A DNA stretch of 64,000 nucleotides. Origin: Planctomycetota bacterium. Its GTDB lineage: Bacteria; Planctomycetota; MHYJ01; WSZJ01. The notes under the pieces are model-generated. The model was not told where the DNA came from, did no database searches, and was given only the letters and a program-made list of their open reading frames with translations. The DNA lies in NCBI GenBank assembly GCA_038060895.1, contig JBBTCT010000027.1, forward strand, positions 94,000 to 157,999, given 5' to 3'. This document shows, piece after piece, positions 16,345-42,476 of this stretch. Position 1 is the first letter of the stretch, and the number at the start of each line of letters is the position of its first letter. Both the position numbers and the translations under genes were made by a program.

Positions 16345-16770
16345 TCAAGCCGGAACGGATGAGAGACAGTGCCCGCATTTTTTCGCCTTGACCGGGATTA
16401 CCATCGCGCACTCGGCGCACGCCTTGGTCGCTGCGGGTGGTGCCGGGGCTTCTTCCTTGTTGCGCATGTTCTGAAGCGTGTTGGCTGCCTTGACCAGCAG
16501 AAAGACTGCCAGCGCCACGATCAGAAAATCGAACACGCTCTGCAGGAAGCTCCCGTACTTCACCAGTACCGGTTTCCCGTCCTTGCCGTCGGCCAGTTTG
16601 ATGGCCAGGTCGACAAAGTTCACCTTCCCGATGGCCATGCCGACCGGCGGCATGACGATGTCCGTCACAAACGAAGTCACAATTTTCCCGAACGCAGCGC
16701 CGACGATGATCCCGACGGCGAGGTCGAGCACGCTTCCGCGCAGGACGAACTGACGGAATTCTTTCAACAT
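16345..16770 (-). CDS. mscL: Large-conductance mechanosensitive channel with C-terminal zinc ribbon
   Basis: MLKEFRQFVLRGSVLDLAVGIIVGAAFGKIVTSFV.DI.MP, YGSFL..FLI; tail CAEC..CGHC. Confidence 0.92.
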   Translation of the reverse strand: MLKEFRQFVLRGSVLDLAVGIIVGAAFGKIVTSFVTDIVMPPVGMAIGKVNFVDLAIKLADGKDGKPVLVKYGSFLQSVFDFLIVALAVFLLVKAANTLQNMRNKEEAPAPPAATKACAECAMVIPVKAKKCGHCLSSVPA

Positions 16771-16801: not shown

Positions 16802-17803
16802 TCAAAATTTGTATCCGAGGGTGGCGAAGTAAAGGACGTCGTGCCTGAAGTTGTGCGCGGGCGCCTCGTGATCGTAGTCCCAGATCGCCCCGATCCTCAT
16901 CGTCCATCCCTTCCCCAAACCTGCAGAAATCGACGCTTCATCGCGTGCCTGCCAGTTCTTGCCACGCTCGAAGTTCGGGTAGAAGGTCAGGTCGTTGACG
17001 AAGACGAGGCCGAGGAACAGGTCCTGGCGGAAGTGAACGAAGATGCGCGCGCCCAGGTGTCCTTCGTCCGGCGAATTCCTGTAGTCATTGGTCATGTAGG
17101 CAGGACCGACTTCGGCCGAGAGATCGGTGTGGTCGGCCTTGATGAAGTCGTACCCGACGCCGACGCTCGTGACGGTCCCGACGCGGAGGTCCTTTGAGAA
17201 GTCGTGGAGGACCTCCTCGCTGATGTACCCGTAAAACCTCTCCGTGAACTTGTACGCGTACTTGATAAGTCCGTAGGCTTTCCGGTCGGTCGTGACTCCC
17301 CGCTCGCGCCCGTAACGGAAATCGGCCCGGATCTGGAACTTGTCATGCTCCGTTTCGCGCAGCAGGTTGATCGCCCCGAGCCCGCTGATCTTGCGTGAGT
17401 TTCCCCCTGTCTGGTAGTAGCCGAGATCAATCGACCCGTGCCAGGTGGTCGGCGTCTCGTTGATATTCGCGACCTTCGCAGGATCCACTTCAACGGGCCC
17501 CTTCAGCGTTTCTCCTTCGACCTTCAGCGCCCCGGCATCGGTCGTGGACACTTTTCCCTCGATCAGCTGCCCGTCGGCAAGCTTCAGCCTGACCGCGTCT
17601 CCTGTGGACAGCGACTGCACCTGCGCCCAGTCGATCAGCACTTCACCCGCATACGCCGTTTTGAATTTCAGCTTTCCGCCGTTCATGTCCACGACGGTGC
17701 CGCTGAGACGGTCTCCGTTTTTCAGGGTGACGATGTCTTCGGCGGAAGCGGCGACGCCGAGCAGCAGGAGCAGGGCTAGAGTAAACCGCGCGTTCATGGG
17801 CAT
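16802..17803 (-). CDS. DUF481 outer-membrane beta-barrel protein
   Basis: Signal peptide, DIVTLKNGDRLSG N-domain, amphipathic strands, GVGYDF and C-terminal LGYKF beta-signal. Confidence 0.8.
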   Translation of the reverse strand: MPMNARFTLALLLLLGVAASAEDIVTLKNGDRLSGTVVDMNGGKLKFKTAYAGEVLIDWAQVQSLSTGDAVRLKLADGQLIEGKVSTTDAGALKVEGETLKGPVEVDPAKVANINETPTTWHGSIDLGYYQTGGNSRKISGLGAINLLRETEHDKFQIRADFRYGRERGVTTDRKAYGLIKYAYKFTERFYGYISEEVLHDFSKDLRVGTVTSVGVGYDFIKADHTDLSAEVGPAYMTNDYRNSPDEGHLGARIFVHFRQDLFLGLVFVNDLTFYPNFERGKNWQARDEASISAGLGKGWTMRIGAIWDYDHEAPAHNFRHDVLYFATLGYKF

Positions 17804-17861
17804 CTCTCTCCGGGATCGGGTTCGGAAAGGAAGACTATTGCGGTATGCATCCCATTCAATG

Positions 17862-17885
17862 AAAAAGGCCGCCCCGAGGGCGGCC
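17862..17885 (-). terminator. Terminator of the thiC-thi4 operon
   Basis: Minus strand reads GGCCGCCC-TCG-GGGCGGCC-TTTTT. Confidence 0.75.
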
Positions 17886-17906
17886 CGTGGAATCCCGGAG
17901 ATCAAA

Positions 17907-19175
17907 TCAGGGTTTCTTTTTGAAGAAGCGGCTGGTGCTGCCGCGCATCCAGCGATTTGTCTCGGGATTGACCGTCGGAATTCCCGGGTCCGGCGGGGCC
18001 ACTGGCGGAGCATTCAGCGACTGGCTCGGCGGATTCGACGGCGAGCCGCTCTGGGCCTGCGCAACGGGAACGGCGGGGAGGCCGCCGCTGCTGGGCGTCT
18101 GGCTCGGCCGGGCCGGCACCTGCGCCGTGACCGCAGGCTGAAACCCGCTCGGCGTGCGCGTGCCGGAAGCCGGTGTTCCCGGGGCCGGGATGCTGGAGCC
18201 AGGGAATCGACCGGTGGTGACGGGGGCGGCAGGAAGCGACGCCACGCTGCCGAACGACTTGGTCGGCGCAACCGGCGTCGGAGCGCCGGGCGGCGGCGGG
18301 AGCTTGACCTGGACGATGCCGGCGGCCGCGGCCGCGCTGGCCGCCGCCGTCTTGTAACTCTGCGTCGCCGAAGGCGCGGCGGGACGCCGGAGCTTCAGCA
18401 CGATCTGCTCCGCGGCCCTTTCGCCCGAAAGCAGCATCGCGCCGAACGCCGGTCCCATGCGCGGCGTGCCGTGCACCGCAGCGACCGCCAGCCCGCAGAC
18501 CCAGAGATTCGGGAGATACTCGCCCGTCCGCTTCACGACCTCCTCCTCCGACTCCTCGATCCACATCGCCCCGTTTCCGGGCGGCTTCGCACAGATGTTC
18601 CGCTTCGCCAGGATGTTTACGACGGAAGCGTCGTGCCCGGTCGCATCCACGACGATGTGCGCTTCGAGCGGGATCGGGTCCACGTGCGCCGTGCCGCTGG
18701 GCATGCTGTAGAGAGGTGCGTAATTGACGACGAGCCCGTCGAGACGGTTCTCGCGCCAGACCACGTCGCGCACCACCGTCAGGTTCAGGAACTTCGCTCC
18801 CGCCGCGTAGCACGCCGCGATCAGCGCCGCCGTCGCGTGCGGCGGGTCGCACAGGATGATGCCGCTGCCGGCGTCCTGAAGCGGAACCCGGAGCTCTTCC
18901 AGAATCCGGTCGGCCGGCTTGCGGATGGCGGCCTTGTTCGACATGTACCCGCCGTTCCAGAAGCCGCCGCCGAGGTGGTTGCACTGTTCGACGACGACGA
19001 CCTTGAGTCCCTGGCGCGCGAGATTCAGCGCGCAGCACAGCCCGCTCGGCCCGGCGCCGACGACCAGCACTTCGGACTGGATCATCTGGTCAAAATGGTC
19101 GGCCCACGACCGCGTAATTGCCCGGGTGACGTCTGCTTCGCGCCCCTCGGATTGAAAGAATTTGCCGGTTGCCAT
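17907..19175 (-). CDS. thi4: Thi4 adenylated thiazole synthase (non-Cys, sulfide-dependent type) with long low-complexity C-terminal tail
   Basis: VGAGPSGL, LGGGFWNGG, HVDP, DATGHD, GTPRMGP.FGAMLLSG; lies directly downstream of thiC. Confidence 0.9.
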   Translation of the reverse strand: MATGKFFQSEGREADVTRAITRSWADHFDQMIQSEVLVVGAGPSGLCCALNLARQGLKVVVVEQCNHLGGGFWNGGYMSNKAAIRKPADRILEELRVPLQDAGSGIILCDPPHATAALIAACYAAGAKFLNLTVVRDVVWRENRLDGLVVNYAPLYSMPSGTAHVDPIPLEAHIVVDATGHDASVVNILAKRNICAKPPGNGAMWIEESEEEVVKRTGEYLPNLWVCGLAVAAVHGTPRMGPAFGAMLLSGERAAEQIVLKLRRPAAPSATQSYKTAAASAAAAAGIVQVKLPPPPGAPTPVAPTKSFGSVASLPAAPVTTGRFPGSSIPAPGTPASGTRTPSGFQPAVTAQVPARPSQTPSSGGLPAVPVAQAQSGSPSNPPSQSLNAPPVAPPDPGIPTVNPETNRWMRGSTSRFFKKKP

Positions 19176-19177
19176 GA

Positions 19178-22088
<2,911 letters not shown>

Positions 22089-30117: not shown

Positions 30118-33100
30118 GTGTTGACCCCGGAAGACCTCGCCCTCGCCCAATCCCTGCTGAAGAGCGGCCGCATTCCGGCTGAGGCGCTTCAGCACCAGAT
30201 TTCCCTCATCGCCGCCGCCCCCGGGAAAAGCCTGGGGGCCTCGCTCGAGGAAGCGGGACTGTTGCCGCGCGGCGAACTCGCGCGCCTGACGGAGACGTTC
30301 GCCTCCAAGGGGACCCGGGTACCCGCGATCGCCGTTGGGGCAGGCGGGCGGAAGAAACTGGGCCGGTACGAGCTGGTCCGGGAACTCGGAAGAGGCGGAA
30401 TGGGCGTCGTCTACGAGGGATTCGAGCCGGGATTGAAACGGCGCGTCGCGATCAAGACGATCATCGCCGGCGAAGGAGCCCCGGAGGACATGGTCGAGAG
30501 GTTCGTGCGCGAGTCGCGCGCCGCCGCGGCACTTCAGCATCCGAACATCGTGCAGGTCTACGAAGTCGGCGAGGCGGACGGCGTGAAATACTTCGCCATG
30601 GAATACGTCGAGGGTACTTCCCTCGACAAGGTCATCAAGCAAGACGGCGCCCTTCCGCCGCGCCGCGCGCTCCGGATTGCCGCCGAGGCGGCCCGGGCGC
30701 TTCAGCATGCGCATGAAAAGGGGATCATTCACCGCGACGTGAAGCCGGGAAACATCCTGCTCGCGGAGGTTCCCGACGCTTCGCTCGTGCGCTCCATGGA
30801 TGGCGGGGAGCGCCCCGAGCGGATCCTGCTGACGGACTTCGGGCTCGCGAAAGAAATGGGCGGGTCTTCTTCGCTGACCCTGAGCGGAAACCTGATCGGC
30901 ACCCCGGCGTACATGAGCCCCGAGCAGGCCGCAGGCAAGATCCGGGAAATCGATGCCCGCAGCGACGTCTACTCCCTCGGCGCCGTCCTCTACGAATTGC
31001 TGGCCGGAAAACCCCCGTTCGGCGGCGACACGCTCGCTTCCGTCCTCTCTGACATCCGGTCCATCGACGCCAGGCCGCTGCGCGGAGTGCGCCAGGGCGT
31101 CCATCGCGACGTGGAGTTGATCGTCCAGAAGGCGATGGCGAAGGACAAGGACCGCCGATACGGTTCCGCCGCCGAATTCGCCGACGACATCGAACGATGG
31201 CTGGGCGGGGAAGCGGTCGTCGCCGCTCCGCCCACGCTCATTTACCGGGTTGCCCGCTTCGCGCGCCGCCGCCGCGCCGCCCTTCTCTCCGCCGCGGCCT
31301 GTCTCGTCGCCGTTGGTTCCCTCGGCGGCTGGCTCGGCTGGCGCCATGTGAGGGACCGTGCAGAAGCGGCCCAGCGCGCCGCGAGCGAAGCACAAGGCAG
31401 GGAGACGCGGGCAAAAGATCATGTGATCGCGGCGTACCGCCTCATCGACCGGGCGGAATTCGACGGCGCGATGGTGGAGCTGAAACTGGCGGAAGCGGAG
31501 GTTCCGGGGTTTGCCGCGGCCGTCACATCCGCCCGCGAATGCCGCCGGAAACGGTCGATCCACGCGATGTCGGAAGCCCTGTCGCGCGAGAACTGGAAGG
31601 GAGCGCTGGCGATCGCGGAGGTGTCCGCCGAGTTTCGCTCGGATCCTGAGATCGTGGTGCTCACGCGTCGCGCGCACGGCACGTGCTCGATCGAGGTGAC
31701 CTCGGCCGAACCGGGAATCGAAGCGGACATGGGAGCGCCCGAGCCGGGAGTGCCCTGGGAGGAAGGTTCTTTTCCCGCGATGGAACTCGCGCGGCGGGTC
31801 GGCCTGTGCCGGCCGCTGGGTTCAGCACCCGTGGCAAAATTCGACGCGGGCTTTGGAGATCATCTCGTCGTCCTGAGCCGCGCGGGCAAAGCCGTGCGAG
31901 TCATCCCGCTCCGGCTTTCCCGCAGCACGGACCTTCGAATCGATTACCGAGTGCTGCGGCCTGGATCGGTCCCCGGCGCGACCCACGAGACCCTCTCCGC
32001 TGCGCTCAAGGATGCACTTCCCGGCAACATCGTGGAACTTCACGGCGGCTCTCACTCCCTGCTGGAGACCAGAATTCCGGCCGGGGTCATGATCCGGGCC
32101 GTCGAGGGAACCGAGCCTCACATCGTTTCTCCCGAGGGACACACGAGTTTTGACGGAATCCGGGCGCACGGGGCGGTTCTCGAAGGCCTTACCTTTGAGC
32201 CCTCAATAGGATCGGGACTGGTGTTCAACGGCGCCTTCAGGCCGGTCATCCGGCGATGCCAATTCGACAAGGTCGGCGCACGCACGCTCGACTTCACCAA
32301 CTCCGACGATTGGCTCGTGCGCGATTGCCGGATAGCCGGGCCCCGCCGCTACGGCGTGGCTGCTGAAAACAGCCTCGGAGGAACCGTGTTTCGGGTCGAT
32401 TGCCGCAACTCTTCCGACGCGGGTTTCGAACTCTCCGGCCGCCGCCAGCGCGTGATCCAGTGCGTGGTGGAAGATTGCGCCAAACTCGGCGTCGGCATCG
32501 AAGGCCAGGACGCCGTCGTCACCGGCTGCCGGATTGCCCGAAGCGGCGTCCAGGGACTCGTGGTCGTGAAGGCGTTCGGCGCCCGCCTCGAAGACAACCT
32601 CCTGCTCGGCAATTGCCATCGCCCCGCCGGCGACGAACCATCCTCGGTCGTCATCTATGACAGCGGCCGCGTCCGCTTCCGCTTCAACACGATCGTCGGC
32701 GGCAAGGGCGTTGGCCTGGGCATCAAGATGTGCGGCGGCTATTTCGAATCCTGGATCGCTTCGGGAATCGAGGGAAGAGCCTTCCATCTCCACGGAATGC
32801 CGGGGCCCGGAATTGACGTCGAGGACGCCACGACGCTCGACTGGTTCGTCACCTGGAACTGCCGGCTCTGGGGGCGCTTCGATACCGTCGAGTTTCCGAA
32901 GATCACGGATGCGACGAACAGCCCGCGGATTGACGGGACGCAGGGATGGAAAGCCGCGCGCGAGGTCGTCGAGTGCGATCCCGGATTTGTCGATCCGGAA
33001 CACGGCGACTACCGCCTGTCGCGCGAGAGCACGGCGCGCGGAAAGGGGCGGGATGGCGCCGACCCCGGCGTCCGGTGGGAAGCGCTTTCGGCCGACCTGA

Positions 33101-33270
33101 AGGACGGCCACGAGTGGCTTCGGCGCGAAAACGGACGGACGCTGGCTCGCGAGGGGATCCGGGCCTTCGTCGGCAACGACCCGACCCGCGCCCGTCGCCT
33201 CGCCGCGCAGGCCGCCGCCCTGGCGCCGGGAGATCCCGCAGTGATGGAACTGGAGGGGCGCCTGAAGTGA
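30118..33270 (+). CDS. Membrane Ser/Thr (Hanks) kinase with PEGA-like and parallel beta-helix ectodomain, copy 1
   Basis: LGRGGMGVVY, VAIK, HRDVKPGN, DFGLA, GTPAYMSPEQ; transmembrane segment; LGSAPV..GDHLVVLSR; TLSAALKDALPGNIVEL; DPGFVDPEHGDYRL. Confidence 0.88.
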   Translation: MLTPEDLALAQSLLKSGRIPAEALQHQISLIAAAPGKSLGASLEEAGLLPRGELARLTETFASKGTRVPAIAVGAGGRKKLGRYELVRELGRGGMGVVYEGFEPGLKRRVAIKTIIAGEGAPEDMVERFVRESRAAAALQHPNIVQVYEVGEADGVKYFAMEYVEGTSLDKVIKQDGALPPRRALRIAAEAARALQHAHEKGIIHRDVKPGNILLAEVPDASLVRSMDGGERPERILLTDFGLAKEMGGSSSLTLSGNLIGTPAYMSPEQAAGKIREIDARSDVYSLGAVLYELLAGKPPFGGDTLASVLSDIRSIDARPLRGVRQGVHRDVELIVQKAMAKDKDRRYGSAAEFADDIERWLGGEAVVAAPPTLIYRVARFARRRRAALLSAAACLVAVGSLGGWLGWRHVRDRAEAAQRAASEAQGRETRAKDHVIAAYRLIDRAEFDGAMVELKLAEAEVPGFAAAVTSARECRRKRSIHAMSEALSRENWKGALAIAEVSAEFRSDPEIVVLTRRAHGTCSIEVTSAEPGIEADMGAPEPGVPWEEGSFPAMELARRVGLCRPLGSAPVAKFDAGFGDHLVVLSRAGKAVRVIPLRLSRSTDLRIDYRVLRPGSVPGATHETLSAALKDALPGNIVELHGGSHSLLETRIPAGVMIRAVEGTEPHIVSPEGHTSFDGIRAHGAVLEGLTFEPSIGSGLVFNGAFRPVIRRCQFDKVGARTLDFTNSDDWLVRDCRIAGPRRYGVAAENSLGGTVFRVDCRNSSDAGFELSGRRQRVIQCVVEDCAKLGVGIEGQDAVVTGCRIARSGVQGLVVVKAFGARLEDNLLLGNCHRPAGDEPSSVVIYDSGRVRFRFNTIVGGKGVGLGIKMCGGYFESWIASGIEGRAFHLHGMPGPGIDVEDATTLDWFVTWNCRLWGRFDTVEFPKITDATNSPRIDGTQGWKAAREVVECDPGFVDPEHGDYRLSRESTARGKGRDGADPGVRWEALSADLKDGHEWLRRENGRTLAREGIRAFVGNDPTRARRLAAQAAALAPGDPAVMELEGRLK

Positions 33271-36200
33271 TAACGGCCGAAGATCTCGCCCTCGCGCAGT
33301 CGCTCCTCGCCTCGGGACGGGTCGATGCGACAGAGATCGAGAAGGCCCTCGCATCGCTGGGCGCGGAGAACTCTGGAAAGCGGCTGAAAGAGGTGCTGGC
33401 CGCGAGAGGGCTTCTTCAATCGGACGGCGCGGCGAAATACGGCGCAACCATCGTTCCCGGCTCGCTGGTGGGAGAGCCGCAGTCCGCGGACGGCTCCCGC
33501 AAACCCGTTGCCGTTCCCGAGACGTTCGACCGGACCATCATGGCGTCGGGATCCGGGAAATCGCTTCCCTCTCCACAACCCGACCCCGCGGTTCGCCCCG
33601 CTCGACGCATCGGCCGATTCGAACTGATGGACGAAATCGCACGAGGCGGAATGGGAATCGTTTACCGCGCCTTCGAGCCGGCGTTGAACAGGCACGTCGC
33701 GCTCAAGGTCCTCATCGCAGGTCAGAACGCGTCCGACGACCAGGTCCAGCGCTTCATTCGCGAAGCTCGAGCCGCAGCGGGCCTCCACCATCCGAACATC
33801 GTGCAGGTCTTCGAAGTCGGCGAAGAAACCGGCTCGCACTGGTTCGCAATGGAACTCGTGGACGGCGCGTCGCTCGACAAGATCATGAAGCAGCAGGGCT
33901 CCTTCCCGCCAAGAACCGCGCTTCGAATCGCACGCGATATCGCCCGCGCCCTTCACTTCGCGCACCAGAAGGGAATCGTCCACCGCGATGTGAAGCCGGG
34001 GAACATCATGGTCGCGTCCTCCGGCAAAGGCGCGGCGTCATCCGTCTCCGGCGACGCCCGCCCGATGCGCGTCCTCCTCGGCGACTTCGGGCTCGCCCGC
34101 GACGCTTCCGCCGGCGCCGGCCTCACCCTCAGCGGAAATCTGCTGGGCACGCCCGCCTACATGAGTCCCGAGCAGGCATCGGGCCGCACGAAGGACATCG
34201 ACGCCCAGAGCGATGTCTTCGGCCTCGGGTCCGTTCTCTACGAACTTCTCTGCGGCAAGCCGCCCTTCCAGGCGTCCTCACTCGGCGACATCCTCTCGAT
34301 GATCATGGGAAGCGACGCCCCGCCGCTTCGCAAGGCCCGGCCAGGCCTGCACCGCGACATCGAACTGATCGTCTCGAAGGCGATGGCGAAAGAGAAGGCC
34401 CGGCGGTACGCGACCGCCGGGGACTTTGCGGACGACATTGACCGGTACCTCAACGGGGAGGCGATTCTCGCGGAGGCTCCGTCGGCCGTGTACAGGGTGG
34501 TGCGCTGGTCCCGGGTTCATGCGCCCCTGGCGGTCGCGGGCACGGTGGCGCTGGTTGCGCTGATCGCGATGGGCGGCATTCTGTTGAAGCGCGCCTGGAA
34601 CCGCCGGATGGACGATCGCCAGCGGCAGGAGGCTGCGAGCAGAGAACTTCAGGAGAAGGTCACCACGGCGTTGCGCGAAGCGGTCGAACTTGCAAATGCG
34701 GGAGAGTTCGGCGAAGCGGACGTACGGCTGGCCGCGGCGCGGAAGCTCGAACCGGGGAACTCATCCATCGAAGCCGCCGCCCGCCACCTGAAGCTCGCGT
34801 TCCTGATAAAACGCGTCGGCGAGGTTGCGGCAAAGCCGGATCCGTCGGAAGAGGAAGTCGCGATCGCGAGATCGCTTCTTGCGATGCACTCCGACCTGGC
34901 CGGGGATCCGGACGTGCGCCGGATGGCACGCCAGGTCGAAGGAACGTGTTCCTGGTCGCTGGCCTCCGACGTGGAGGGGCTTGAGGTCGACCTTGCGTCC
35001 GCGGAACCCGGGATCTATTGGGATGAGGAAACCTTCCCGCGGGTGGCCGAGGCGCGCGGCGCAGGGTTGTGCAAGCGCATCGGAGAAGCTCCTGTCGCCC
35101 CGCAGGACGCGCCCTACGGCGAGTACCTCATCATCCTCAGCCGCGAAGGGCATCCGGTCCGAATCATCCCGATGAACCTGCGTCGCAACACGACTGCCGC
35201 GATGGAGCACCGCGTGTTGCGCGTCGGGAAGTCGCCGGATGCAACCCATTCGCGTGTGGAAGACGCGCTCTTCGAGGCTCGTGCCGGCAACTCGATTCTC
35301 CTGGAGAACGAGGTGTTCGGGGGCATTGAAGTTCACAGCAAGCCAGGCCTCCTGATCGGCGCCATTCCCGGCGCCCGTCCGGCCCTGAGCAACTCTGCCG
35401 GGCATTCGATCTACGCCTCGGACTGTTACGGCATTCGCTTGCGCGACCTCACGATCACTTCCGTTTCTGGAACCATCTGCTCCCTCACAACCAGCTCGCG
35501 GGCTTCCGTCATCCGCTGCCGGGCCACCGTTCCTGGATCCGCAGGGCTCGGAGCCCTCAACAGCGGTGATTGGCACGCCCGCGACAGCGTGTTCATGGCA
35601 GGCCAGGCCGGCTACGGGATCCACTCCGACCGCCTGCCCGGATGCCTCGCATTTCGGGTCACGGTCGAGGGCGGAGGCTGGTGTTCCGTCGTCTCCGCCG
35701 GCGACCGGGCACGATTCATCCAGTGCCGTTTCTCAAAAGGCCAGCTCGCCGCCATGACCCTCCAGGGCCCCGACTCCGAGCTCGTCGAATGCGAATTCCG
35801 GGACTGCCCGAACTGGGGGGTGCTCACCGAAGGCCGGTCGGAGAGAGCCTTGATCCGTGATTGCCACTTCGTTCAGTGCGGCGCGCGTCCTTCCTCTTCC
35901 GTCTATGCCGGTGCTCTCGTCGTCTCCAACGGTGGAATCGTCGAGCACAATACGTTTGCAGGATGCGCCTTCGCGGCCATCACCTTCCTGGGAAGCGGCT
36001 CCATTCGTGACAACCTCTTTGCCCCCGTCCTCGATTTCACAAAGGTCGACGGCGGGGTCCTCCCCGGCGGTCCCGTCTTCCTCCGCGGCGATGAGGACGG
36101 TCCGTGCCTCGAAGGAAACTTCTACGCATCCAGCACCCTGGCGGGGCGGGTCCGCGAAACGAAATGCTCTACCGAAGAGGTGTTTGCCCGGGAAGCGGCG

Positions 36201-36539
36201 GGCATGAACTGCCCCATCGGCAAGGCTCCGCCTCTCCGGAATCTCGACGCCCCTGCCGCCGCGACTCTCCTGCCGGAAGGCGGCCTCGCTCCAGGCAGCC
36301 CGCTGCTGACGGCTGCCACCGATGGCGGTCCGGTGGGAGTCCGCTTCAACGCCCTCGCCGCCGATACGATCGCGAGCGAGGAGTGGATGAAGAGGGACAT
36401 CGGGCGGCTTTACGCGTGGAGGGGGACGGAGGCGCTGAACAAGGGAGACCGTGCGGCGGCCGCGCACTACCTCGCGAAAGCTCACCTGATGGCCGCTTCC
36501 GACCCCGCCGTGAACGACCTGGCGGCGCGGCTGAAATAA
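33267..36539 (+). CDS. Membrane Ser/Thr (Hanks) kinase with PEGA-like and beta-helix ectodomain, copy 2
   Basis: GTG start overlaps the TGA of copy 1 (GTGA); MITAEDLALAQSLL matches MLTPEDLALAQSLL; all kinase motifs are intact and the domain order is the same. Confidence 0.88.
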   Translation: MITAEDLALAQSLLASGRVDATEIEKALASLGAENSGKRLKEVLAARGLLQSDGAAKYGATIVPGSLVGEPQSADGSRKPVAVPETFDRTIMASGSGKSLPSPQPDPAVRPARRIGRFELMDEIARGGMGIVYRAFEPALNRHVALKVLIAGQNASDDQVQRFIREARAAAGLHHPNIVQVFEVGEETGSHWFAMELVDGASLDKIMKQQGSFPPRTALRIARDIARALHFAHQKGIVHRDVKPGNIMVASSGKGAASSVSGDARPMRVLLGDFGLARDASAGAGLTLSGNLLGTPAYMSPEQASGRTKDIDAQSDVFGLGSVLYELLCGKPPFQASSLGDILSMIMGSDAPPLRKARPGLHRDIELIVSKAMAKEKARRYATAGDFADDIDRYLNGEAILAEAPSAVYRVVRWSRVHAPLAVAGTVALVALIAMGGILLKRAWNRRMDDRQRQEAASRELQEKVTTALREAVELANAGEFGEADVRLAAARKLEPGNSSIEAAARHLKLAFLIKRVGEVAAKPDPSEEEVAIARSLLAMHSDLAGDPDVRRMARQVEGTCSWSLASDVEGLEVDLASAEPGIYWDEETFPRVAEARGAGLCKRIGEAPVAPQDAPYGEYLIILSREGHPVRIIPMNLRRNTTAAMEHRVLRVGKSPDATHSRVEDALFEARAGNSILLENEVFGGIEVHSKPGLLIGAIPGARPALSNSAGHSIYASDCYGIRLRDLTITSVSGTICSLTTSSRASVIRCRATVPGSAGLGALNSGDWHARDSVFMAGQAGYGIHSDRLPGCLAFRVTVEGGGWCSVVSAGDRARFIQCRFSKGQLAAMTLQGPDSELVECEFRDCPNWGVLTEGRSERALIRDCHFVQCGARPSSSVYAGALVVSNGGIVEHNTFAGCAFAAITFLGSGSIRDNLFAPVLDFTKVDGGVLPGGPVFLRGDEDGPCLEGNFYASSTLAGRVRETKCSTEEVFAREAAGMNCPIGKAPPLRNLDAPAAATLLPEGGLAPGSPLLTAATDGGPVGVRFNALAADTIASEEWMKRDIGRLYAWRGTEALNKGDRAAAAHYLAKAHLMAASDPAVNDLAARLK

Positions 36540-40985: not shown

Positions 40986-42476
40986 ATGCCCCTCATCCGG
41001 GTTAAAGCCGGAGCCGAAGTCGGACGCACGACCGACATCACGAACGAGGTGATCACGATCGGTCGTGACCCGAATGCGATGGTCAAGGTCATGGACCACG
41101 GGGTGTCGCGCCAGCACGCGGAGATTTTCAAGATCGGCGAGATGTGCTTTATCCGCGATCTGAAGTCCACGAACGGAACGTTCGTGAACGACCAGAAGAT
41201 CACGGAAGAGTTGCTGCGGGCGGGCGACCTGGTGCGCATCGGCAACACGATCCTGACCTTCGAGGACGGGGGCGCGCCGCGCGCCGAGGAAAAGCAGGTC
41301 GATTTCGACCAGGGGCGCGAGCTGTCGGCGCACTCGACGATCGAGCTGAAACTGGACCGCACACCGGACAAGAATCTCCCGCCGGCTGAGAAGGTCGGCA
41401 AGGAACTTGAAAACCGCAACCTCTCCGCCCTCTACGACGTCGCGCGCATCATCGGGACGGAACGCGACGCCCAGGGACTCCTCAACAAGATCCTCGAACT
41501 CGCCCTTCAGTCCACGAACGCCGACACCGGCTACCTGCTGCTCCTCGAAAAGGGAACGGGGAAGCTCGTCCCCAAGGCCGCCATCTCCAAGGAAAAGACC
41601 GAGCCGAAGATCTCGCGCACGATCGTCAAGCGCGTCATGCAATACGCCCGCGCCATCCTGACGAGCGACGCCATGCTCGATTCGCGGTTCGCCGGCAGCG
41701 AATCGATCGTCATGAAGAACATCAAGTCGGTCATCTGCGCGCCGCTCGTCAGCCGCGACAAGATCACCGGCATTCTCTACCTGCACTCGAGCAAGGTGGC
41801 GCAGGAATTCAGCAGCGAGGATCTCGAACTCGCCACGGCCATATCGCTTCAGGCCGGGATGGCGATCAGCGCCTTCTCGTCCGGCGAGGTGCTTCGCAAG
41901 ACGCTCGTGTCCTTCGTCAAGACGCTGGTGACGGCCACGGAAATCCGCGACCCGAAAATGCAGGGCCACTCCGAGCGCGTTGCCAATTTTTCAATGGCGA
42001 TCGGCGCCCAGATGAAGCTTCCGAAAGCCGAGCTTCAGCGGATCCATCTCGCCGCCCTCCTGCACGACATCGGGAAGATGGGACTGCCGCTTCACGCACC
42101 CGACGGCTCCGACAAGGAAAAGTGGAAGGAAGAACACGTCAACCTCGGCGAGAAACTCGTTTCGAGCATCGAGGGATTCGAAGACGTGCTGCCCGGCGTC
42201 AAGTACCACCACGAGTACCTCGACGGAAGCGGTTTTCCGCACAAGCTCAAGGGGGACGCCATTCCGCAGATCGCGCGGATCCTGGCGGTCGCCAATGATT
42301 TTGACAACTCAACCGCCCGGGGCGGACTCAAGGGCGAGGGGTTGCCCGTGAAAGAAGTGCTGATCGACATGGGCCGCGCCGGATCGGGCAAGTACGACGA
42401 CGCGGTCATCCAGGCGCTCCTGGTCTGCCACAGAAACGGGACGCTGTTCGAGCCGTCGACGCCGTTCGAGATGTAG
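40986..42476 (+). CDS. FHA-GAF-HD-GYP domain protein
   Basis: FHA IGR..VSRQHA..DLKSTNGTFVN; GAF SVICAPL..GILYL; GHSERV, LHDIGK, HHEYLDGSGFP. Confidence 0.88.
   Translation: MPLIRVKAGAEVGRTTDITNEVITIGRDPNAMVKVMDHGVSRQHAEIFKIGEMCFIRDLKSTNGTFVNDQKITEELLRAGDLVRIGNTILTFEDGGAPRAEEKQVDFDQGRELSAHSTIELKLDRTPDKNLPPAEKVGKELENRNLSALYDVARIIGTERDAQGLLNKILELALQSTNADTGYLLLLEKGTGKLVPKAAISKEKTEPKISRTIVKRVMQYARAILTSDAMLDSRFAGSESIVMKNIKSVICAPLVSRDKITGILYLHSSKVAQEFSSEDLELATAISLQAGMAISAFSSGEVLRKTLVSFVKTLVTATEIRDPKMQGHSERVANFSMAIGAQMKLPKAELQRIHLAALLHDIGKMGLPLHAPDGSDKEKWKEEHVNLGEKLVSSIEGFEDVLPGVKYHHEYLDGSGFPHKLKGDAIPQIARILAVANDFDNSTARGGLKGEGLPVKEVLIDMGRAGSGKYDDAVIQALLVCHRNGTLFEPSTPFEM

Follow-up and report, generated by a model that had tools for sequence, protein, structure and literature searches.

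The locus analysed here raised the question why a Thi4 protein, in other respects an ordinary enzyme of thiamine synthesis, should continue for 160 residues beyond the end of its catalytic domain, and what such a tail might do. The gene is located in a stretch of 64,000 nucleotides from the genome of a Planctomycetota bacterium, which is called the window throughout the paper and to which all positions refer. It occupies positions 17907-19175 of the minus strand and encodes, from an ATG at 19175, a protein of 422 amino acids. This ATG lies 2 nt past the thiC stop codon (TGA at 19178-19180), with GGTGGAGG found 10 nt upstream of it, and the Thi4 homologues share the same start methionine. The thi4 stop codon is followed, after 20 nt, by a terminator-like hairpin. 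The operon thus reads TPP riboswitch, thiC, thi4, terminator, which is a thiamine-pathway context. A neighbourhood comparison (thiC, thi4, DUF481, MscL, TfoX_N) revealed ordinary synteny within one genus only. The positions of all features are summarized in Table 1. Directly 3' of the thi4 terminator, a DUF481 protein with a signal-peptide-like N-terminus is encoded (window 16802-17800, minus strand), which was found syntenic in 5 of 7 related loci. The MscL channel protein (window 16345-16770, minus strand), matched by Pfam over residues 1-121 of 141, carries an extra short C-terminal stretch whose CxxC...CxxC pattern may represent a small zinc ribbon.

Table 1. Features of the thiC-thi4 operon and of the Thi4 protein, given in window positions and ordered in the direction of transcription.
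Feature	Position	Strand	Remarks
TPP riboswitch, operon head	20602..20704	minus	Rfam RF00059, 65.3 bits (gathering 54.3), full model 1-105
thiC (HMP-P synthase)	19178..20560, 5' limit approximate	minus	Pfam ThiC_Rad_SAM, E 3.9e-195, profile 1-419 of 420
thi4 ORF	17907..19283	minus	open reading frame; coding part from ATG at 19175
Thi4 catalytic domain (predicted), residues 1-262	18390..19175	minus	His164 at the presumed suicide-Cys position
Thi4 C-terminal tail (predicted disordered), residues 263-422	17910..18389	minus	net charge +12; stop at 17907-17909
TQSY, residues 271-274	18354..18365	minus	TQ[SA][YF] in 7/11 tails, plus TRGF in an eighth
Block A, residues 287-309 (IVQVKLPPPPGAPTPVAPTKSFG)	18249..18317	minus	includes TKSF 305-308; consensus [IVL]VxV[KN]LP...PTPVAPT[KR][SA]F
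Variable linker, residues 310-395	17991..18248	minus	many indels
TGRF, residues 321-324, semi-conserved	18204..18215	minus	TGRF/TNRF/TRGF in 6/11 tails; TRAL, ARLA or ARVA in others
Block C, residues 396-421 (DPGIPTVNPETNRWMRGSTSRFFKKK)	17913..17990	minus	includes TNRW 406-409 and TSRF 414-417; consensus IPTVxPETxRWxRG[SG]TSR[FY]F[KR]KK
Intrinsic terminator-like hairpin	17866..17886	minus	9-pair stem, 8 GC pairs, then T run TTTTCATTGA

The extent of the catalytic domain was deduced from profile and structure matches. Pfam Thi4 (PF01946) covered residues 17-244 (E 4e-61, 206.7 bits with a cut-off of 26.2, profile 1-235 of 235), and the NCBIfam equivalog TIGR00292 for sulfide-dependent ADP-thiazole synthase covered residues 13-262 (240.3 bits with a cut-off of 148.3, profile 1-253 of 254). 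The best solved relatives were the methanogen Thi4 chains 4y4m (E 1.3e-59) and 4y4n, which aligned to residues 12-264 and stop there. Since TIGR00292 ends at residue 262 and both chains end opposite residue 264, residues 263-422 were defined as the tail. In the AlphaFold2 model, 237 residues of the core reached a pLDDT of at least 90. The core is mildly acidic with a net charge of -4. Its residue H164, part of TAHVDP, stands opposite the LHIDP His of 4y4m and the SCMDPN Cys of a eukaryote-type homologue, and was invariant across the 11 tailed sequences of our alignment. We take residue 164 to be the sulfur-donor position, i.e., that of the suicide Cys. His was reported at the sulfur-donor position in 171 of 199 non-Cys THI4s (PMC8454699, accessible text). 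As His164 replaces the suicide Cys of the fungal and plant enzymes, the protein belongs to the non-Cys, His-type, catalytic, sulfide-dependent class delineated there. Residues 1-262 form a complete His-type, sulfide-dependent Thi4. The same full-length catalytic domain with a His at the suicide-Cys position is found in the Methanocaldococcus jannaschii (4Y4M), Methanococcus igneus (4Y4N) and Thermovibrio ammonificans THI4 proteins. However, these proteins end 0-2 residues past the last core helix, while the protein described here runs on for 160 residues. In the accessible text of PMC8454699 a C-terminal tail of Thi4 is not mentioned (0 occurrences each of "tail" and "extension").

The sequence-only reading had proposed a disordered tail of about 160 amino acids, and this was borne out: the frame of 422 codons stays open through residues 263-422, and the distal stop lies just ahead of the terminator. 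As every characterised Thi4 ends near residue 262 and long frames stay open by chance in high-GC DNA, the tail could in principle reflect non-functional read-through, mis-assembly or a sequencing error, with the real protein ending near residue 262. The distribution of the tail spoke against this. A search with the entire protein yielded matches including the tail in each of the 7 other genomes of the genus (5 in one piece, 1 in two pieces, 1 cut by a contig end). Eight independently assembled genomes therefore keep the frame open, all indels being multiples of three. Among 33 other genomes from 13 other families of the class, this query found only Rossmann-motif matches (residues ~27-95) and no Thi4. 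In 185,579 species genomes, 70 Thi4 loci were detected. Seven of these carried a tail of 111-168 amino acids, all from Planctomycetota including one labelled Candidatus Brocadiia; the remaining 63, mostly Nitrospirota at 51-61% identity, end 2-11 amino acids past the core. In a set of 1.84 billion cluster representatives, the tailed proteins formed a cluster of their own, and none of the matches listed aligned beyond residue 285. Close homologues of the tailed protein thus do not stop at residue ~262.

Contigs from another study were identical over tail, stop codon and terminator. A DNA contig of 1021 nt covered positions 17700-18339 with 0 differences and no indels. An RNA-library contig (X6, 18261-18491) spanned the core/tail junction with 0 differences, which is no proof of transcription, as RNA libraries may contain DNA. 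Uncovered parts of the contig-matching run carry no meaning. At window positions 19259-19296, many short contigs from several runs were stacked at summed depths of 272 and 423 with flanks diverging on both sides, which fits a highly conserved thiC segment common to many organisms of the samples. Selection was estimated at a dS of 0.7-2, where synonymous sites are near saturation. The dN/dS values ranged from 0.04 to 0.14 in the core, from 0.16 to 0.48 over the tail as a whole, from 0.17 to 0.51 in the central linker and from 0 to 0.09 in the last 26-27 residues, corresponding to block C. By this measure, block C is as constrained as the catalytic core. Values well below 1 against a near-saturated dS indicate that the tail is translated and under purifying selection. 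We are aware of the fact that all tailed sequences stem from one genus-level clade, so that conservation was measured among kin. The terminator, moreover, follows the distal stop and not residue 262. Taking together the tails of the same genus, the dN/dS values and the identical contigs of another study, the artefact explanation is effectively refuted, and we assign it a practically negligible probability.

Pro, Ala, Ser, Thr and Gly contribute 66% of the tail (P33, A26, S20, T14 and G13 of 160 residues), its pI is ~12, and neither Pfam nor NCBIfam matched residues 263-422. AlphaFold2, run with an alignment of 44 sequences, gave a pLDDT mostly below 50 for the tail with a modest rise between residues 391 and 410 (55-69). 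Aligning 11 tailed proteins, no two of which had tails more than 90% identical, resolved the tail into block A, a linker of variable length and block C. In block A, V290, L292, P293, P301 and F308 were invariant, and T300, V302, A303, P304 and T305 were conserved in at least 90% of the 11 tails. A block A profile detected no further significant copies within the tail, which is thus not a detectable tandem repeat. In block C, 19 of 26 positions were invariant in the 11 sequences, and the polar or small residues N/S403, P404, E405, T406, G412, T414 and S415 were kept as strictly as the hydrophobic ones. In 3 of the 11 sequences, 2-25 residues follow this peptide, and a C-terminal degron is for that reason unlikely. 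On the sequence level we thus show a tail that is conserved under purifying selection, with an anatomy of motifs and spacers unique to this Thi4 clade. As a separate observation, block A contains PVAPT[KR] (residues 301-306 of the present protein, P0001; window 18258-18275), kept in 9 of 11 tails with PIAPTK in P0002 and PVAHTR in L008. This agrees with the class II SH3 ligand consensus, PxxPx[KR].

Five of the seven aromatic residues of the tail are found at +3 from a Thr (TQSY 271, TKSF 305, TGRF 321, TNRW 406, TSRF 414), as had been pointed out from the sequence alone; the coordinates of two of these motifs were verified by hand. Shuffling the tail 100,000 times gave a mean motif count of 0.60 and 5 or more motifs at a frequency of 3e-5, a post-hoc value, as the statistic was picked after the pattern had been seen. 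Whether the motifs are conserved while the spacers drift was the check suggested there, and a comparison of the 11 tails answered it largely in the affirmative. TNRW/TGRW and TSRF/TSRY were each kept in 11 of 11 tails and T[KR][SA]F in 10 of 11 (SRSF in the eleventh), so that three motifs were present in 10-11 tails and the other two in 6-8, with spacers varying in sequence and length. Within the motifs, the Thr and the aromatic residue were constant and the two middle residues varied, and motifs survived turnover, e.g., from TQSY to TRGF or from TGRF to TNRF or TRGF. The two best-kept motifs (TNRW, TSRF) are located in block C and TKSF in block A, where most neighbouring positions were conserved too. 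Overall, 53 aromatic sites were counted in the 11 tails, omitting the second residue of an aromatic pair, and the residue at -3 was Thr in 45, Ser in 2, Pro in 4 and Ala in 2 cases, at an overall tail content of 10.5% Thr and 8.6% Ser. The aromatic residues mostly adjoin R or K. Among the 3,877 ORFs of a rough proteome, 577 disorder-like segments were recognized. Across these, Thr was found at -3 of aromatic residues in 9.3% versus a background of 7.5%, and the Thi4 tail ranked first with 5 motifs, the next best segment having 2. As there is nearly no Thr bias in the other disorder-like segments, the Thr-x-x-aromatic rule belongs to the Thi4 tail and not to the composition of the organism.

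The conserved blocks were found in no other protein of the genome or of the large collections searched, and hence there was no shared-motif clue to a reader. The C-terminal peptide of 40 amino acids matched nothing beyond Thi4 in its own genome (next best E 0.98), and profiles of blocks A and C detected only Thi4 among 80,749 six-frame pieces of this genome (next best E 0.1 and 0.088, respectively). In 5.8 billion protein clusters, searched for longer proteins only, all 6 matches among 10 candidates were tailed Thi4. A degenerate DNA pattern hit 6 stretches in species-genome contigs, all on contigs of known tailed Thi4, and 0 stretches in a non-exhaustive collection of metagenome contigs (two tailed proteins bear a JGI source label). 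When a protein atlas was searched with the tail, no usable match by features was returned, and structural matches had a TM of at most 0.30.

With respect to its evolutionary setting, the core was closest to the Thi4 of Nitrospirota in the species-genome scan, and among the relatives searched Thi4 was found only in this genus. ThiG, which is the common thiazole synthase of bacteria, scored above the cut-off in 12 of 13 genomes searched (own genome plus relatives), including 6 of 7 other genomes of the genus and 5 of 5 outgroups. As ThiG is present across the relatives and Thi4 was found in the genus only, Thi4 is an extra thiazole route gained in the genus. The own genome encodes ThiG at C27:56511-57242, ~37 kb before the window start, and thereby two thiazole routes. 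The tail originated within this lineage or in the line leading to it.

What could the tail be good for? It is a genuine, translated and clade-specific extension, predicted to be intrinsically disordered, of a catalytic Thi4 that is ordinary in other respects, and we consider it slightly more probable than not that it tethers the enzyme to a specific, putative macromolecular partner. The core serves thiamine synthesis under the control of the TPP riboswitch, and the tail would act as a flexible tether bearing short linear motifs, namely the five Thr-x-x-aromatic units, block A and the near-invariant C-terminal peptide. These motifs would dock the enzyme onto the putative partner. Since octamers were reported for solved Thi4 relatives (PMC8454699, accessible text), one particle may display eight tails, and an octamer assumed in this way would allow multivalent binding. 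A folded oligomeric core, a disordered linker of variable length and strongly selected peptides are the elements that make up a tethered docking motif. Such an architecture is known from FtsZ, where a folded core is followed by a variable disordered linker and a conserved C-terminal peptide. Here, as in FtsZ, an oligomerising core and a variable linker are joined to a short conserved peptide for docking, the end of which is basic. This is an analogy only, as there is no sequence relation and, unlike in FtsZ, residues follow the peptide in some of the Thi4 tails.

Who might read the motifs? The FHA domain of RNF8, from the eukaryotic DNA-damage system, binds the TQXF cluster of MDC1. Both in these ligand clusters and in the Thi4 tail, a disordered region presents the Thr-x-x-aromatic unit several times, with Thr and not Ser, and one unit of the tail is literally TQ[SA][YF]; however, the flanks differ, and phosphorylation and an FHA reader of the Thi4 tail are putative. 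Worded as a phospho-switch, in line with the sequence-only reading, Hanks kinases would phosphorylate the Thr of the Thr-x-x-aromatic units, FHA proteins would bind pThr together with the aromatic residue at +3, and the octamer would turn into a regulated multivalent hub or condensate, a possible but not a likely explanation. It draws on the preference for Thr over Ser at -3 of the aromatic residues (45 versus 2). FHA domains are described to discriminate pThr from pSer and to reject the latter (PMC3146460, available passages), so that a Thr-only signature fits FHA. Likewise, the constant Thr and aromatic positions with their variable middle residues agree with it, and the aromatic residue at +3 fits both the selection of pTxxY/F by the RNF8 FHA domain (PMC13262263, available passages) and the large hydrophobic residue at +3 reportedly preferred by mycobacterial Hanks kinases (PMC5686395, quoting Prisic 2010). 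The genome of 5.4 Mb is unusually rich in both domains, with 132 Pkinase and 24 FHA matches. However, the FHA and kinase genes are unlinked to thi4, with 12-23 kb between it and the closest of them, and other disordered segments of this kinase-rich genome lack the motif. The kinase motif as quoted wants acidic residues before the Thr, while the context in the tail is basic or Pro-rich except for E405, and the choice of an aromatic residue at +3 is described as unusual among FHA domains. The conservation of block C exceeds the needs of a pTxxF ligand. As nearly every position is conserved beyond Thr and the aromatic residue, phospho-docking or condensate formation is offered as a good hypothesis only. 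A bacterial precedent is Rv1747 of Mycobacterium tuberculosis, for which the available text of PMC8339232 describes clustering driven by pThr and FHA. There, multivalent pThr/FHA interactions take place on a disordered segment; however, its linker is bound by FHA domains of the same protein and a kinase is encoded next to it, while the Thi4 studied here has neither. Within the docking explanation, recognition of pThr by an FHA domain is, tentatively, the leading specific mechanism. The further step to a phospho-regulated hub, in which each of eight tails would contribute up to five pThr-x-x-aromatic sites and the octamer thereby ~40 FHA-docking sites, written by the greatly expanded Hanks-kinase network and read by FHA proteins, we regard as unlikely. 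If true, the enzyme could be clustered, sequestered or switched, as a bacterial counterpart of RNF8-type pTxxF/Y reading and of condensates of the Rv1747 type.

The tail might also interact with Thi4 itself, the basic tail folding back on the acidic core of its own or a neighbouring octamer and gating the active-site pore or stabilising the ring, or Arg/aromatic stickers linking octamers into assemblies that need no further partner. The charges are complementary (tail +12, core -4), the tail aromatics mostly stand next to R or K, and helix 206-216 has gained acidic residues through core substitutions specific to the tailed clade. Comparing 7 tailed with 61 untailed sequences (1 tailed and 2 untailed loci were left out as truncated), E208 replaces the R of 53 of 61 untailed relatives and E212 the L or M of 47 of 61. 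However, two untailed relatives (L037, L041) have EESEE too, a linker of ~90-130 residues exceeds what folding back needs, and sticker-type association needs no invariant peptide of 26 residues. The tail was modelled undocked in the AlphaFold2 monomer, and a complex prediction of core 1-265 with peptide 383-422 gave scores of 0.02, 0.32 and 0.13 (median 0.13 versus a mark of 0.32), which counts for neither side. Self-interaction is thus distinctly improbable in our view. Least probable among the functional explanations, and by our estimate only a slight chance, is an electrostatic anchoring in which the basic-aromatic C-terminus (RWMRGSTSRFFKKK) would bind anionic membranes, nucleic acid or polyphosphate and localise the enzyme. 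The high pI of the tail, the net charge of +4 and four large hydrophobic residues of block C, and a helical hydrophobic moment of 0.5-0.57 around residues 401-418 would suit such a role. However, the linker carries little charge (just +3 in 87 residues), Gly, Ser and Thr break the putative helix, the mean hydrophobicity is -0.3 to -0.5, and the AlphaFold2 model predicts no helix there. Membrane-targeting helices conserve character and not sequence, for which the strict conservation of polar and small residues is atypical. As these residues of block C are kept as strictly as the hydrophobic ones, a specific protein interface is favoured over membrane or polyanion binding and over sticker-type self-association. 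Targeting as cargo to encapsulins or microcompartments found no support, with 0 matches for PF04454 and PF00936 in the genome, whose completeness of 86.5% leaves a small doubt.

Short linear motifs in disordered tails are central to eukaryotic regulation, and little of their bacterial repertoire has been mapped. In the present case, one lineage has added such a tail to a textbook metabolic enzyme, and its nearest relatives without a tail provide a clean contrast. The enzyme family is known; the new part would be the lineage-specific regulatory appendage with its putative function. If docking involves a phospho-Thr module as reader, the Planctomycetota would have a link between cofactor synthesis and Ser/Thr signalling. 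Otherwise, the near-invariant peptide of 26 residues is a ready bait for a new Thi4 partner. Non-Cys Thi4 enzymes are, in addition, of interest for crop engineering (PMC8454699, accessible text).

Further proteins were noted elsewhere in the window. On the plus strand, 30118-33267 and 32946-36536 each encode a large Hanks-type kinase protein that has a right-handed beta-helix region at its C-terminal side, and both belong to the 132 Pkinase matches. The product of 40986-42473 (plus strand) combines FHA, GAF and HD (HD_5) domains, and would couple the reading of phospho-Thr to a possible nucleotide-signal hydrolase.
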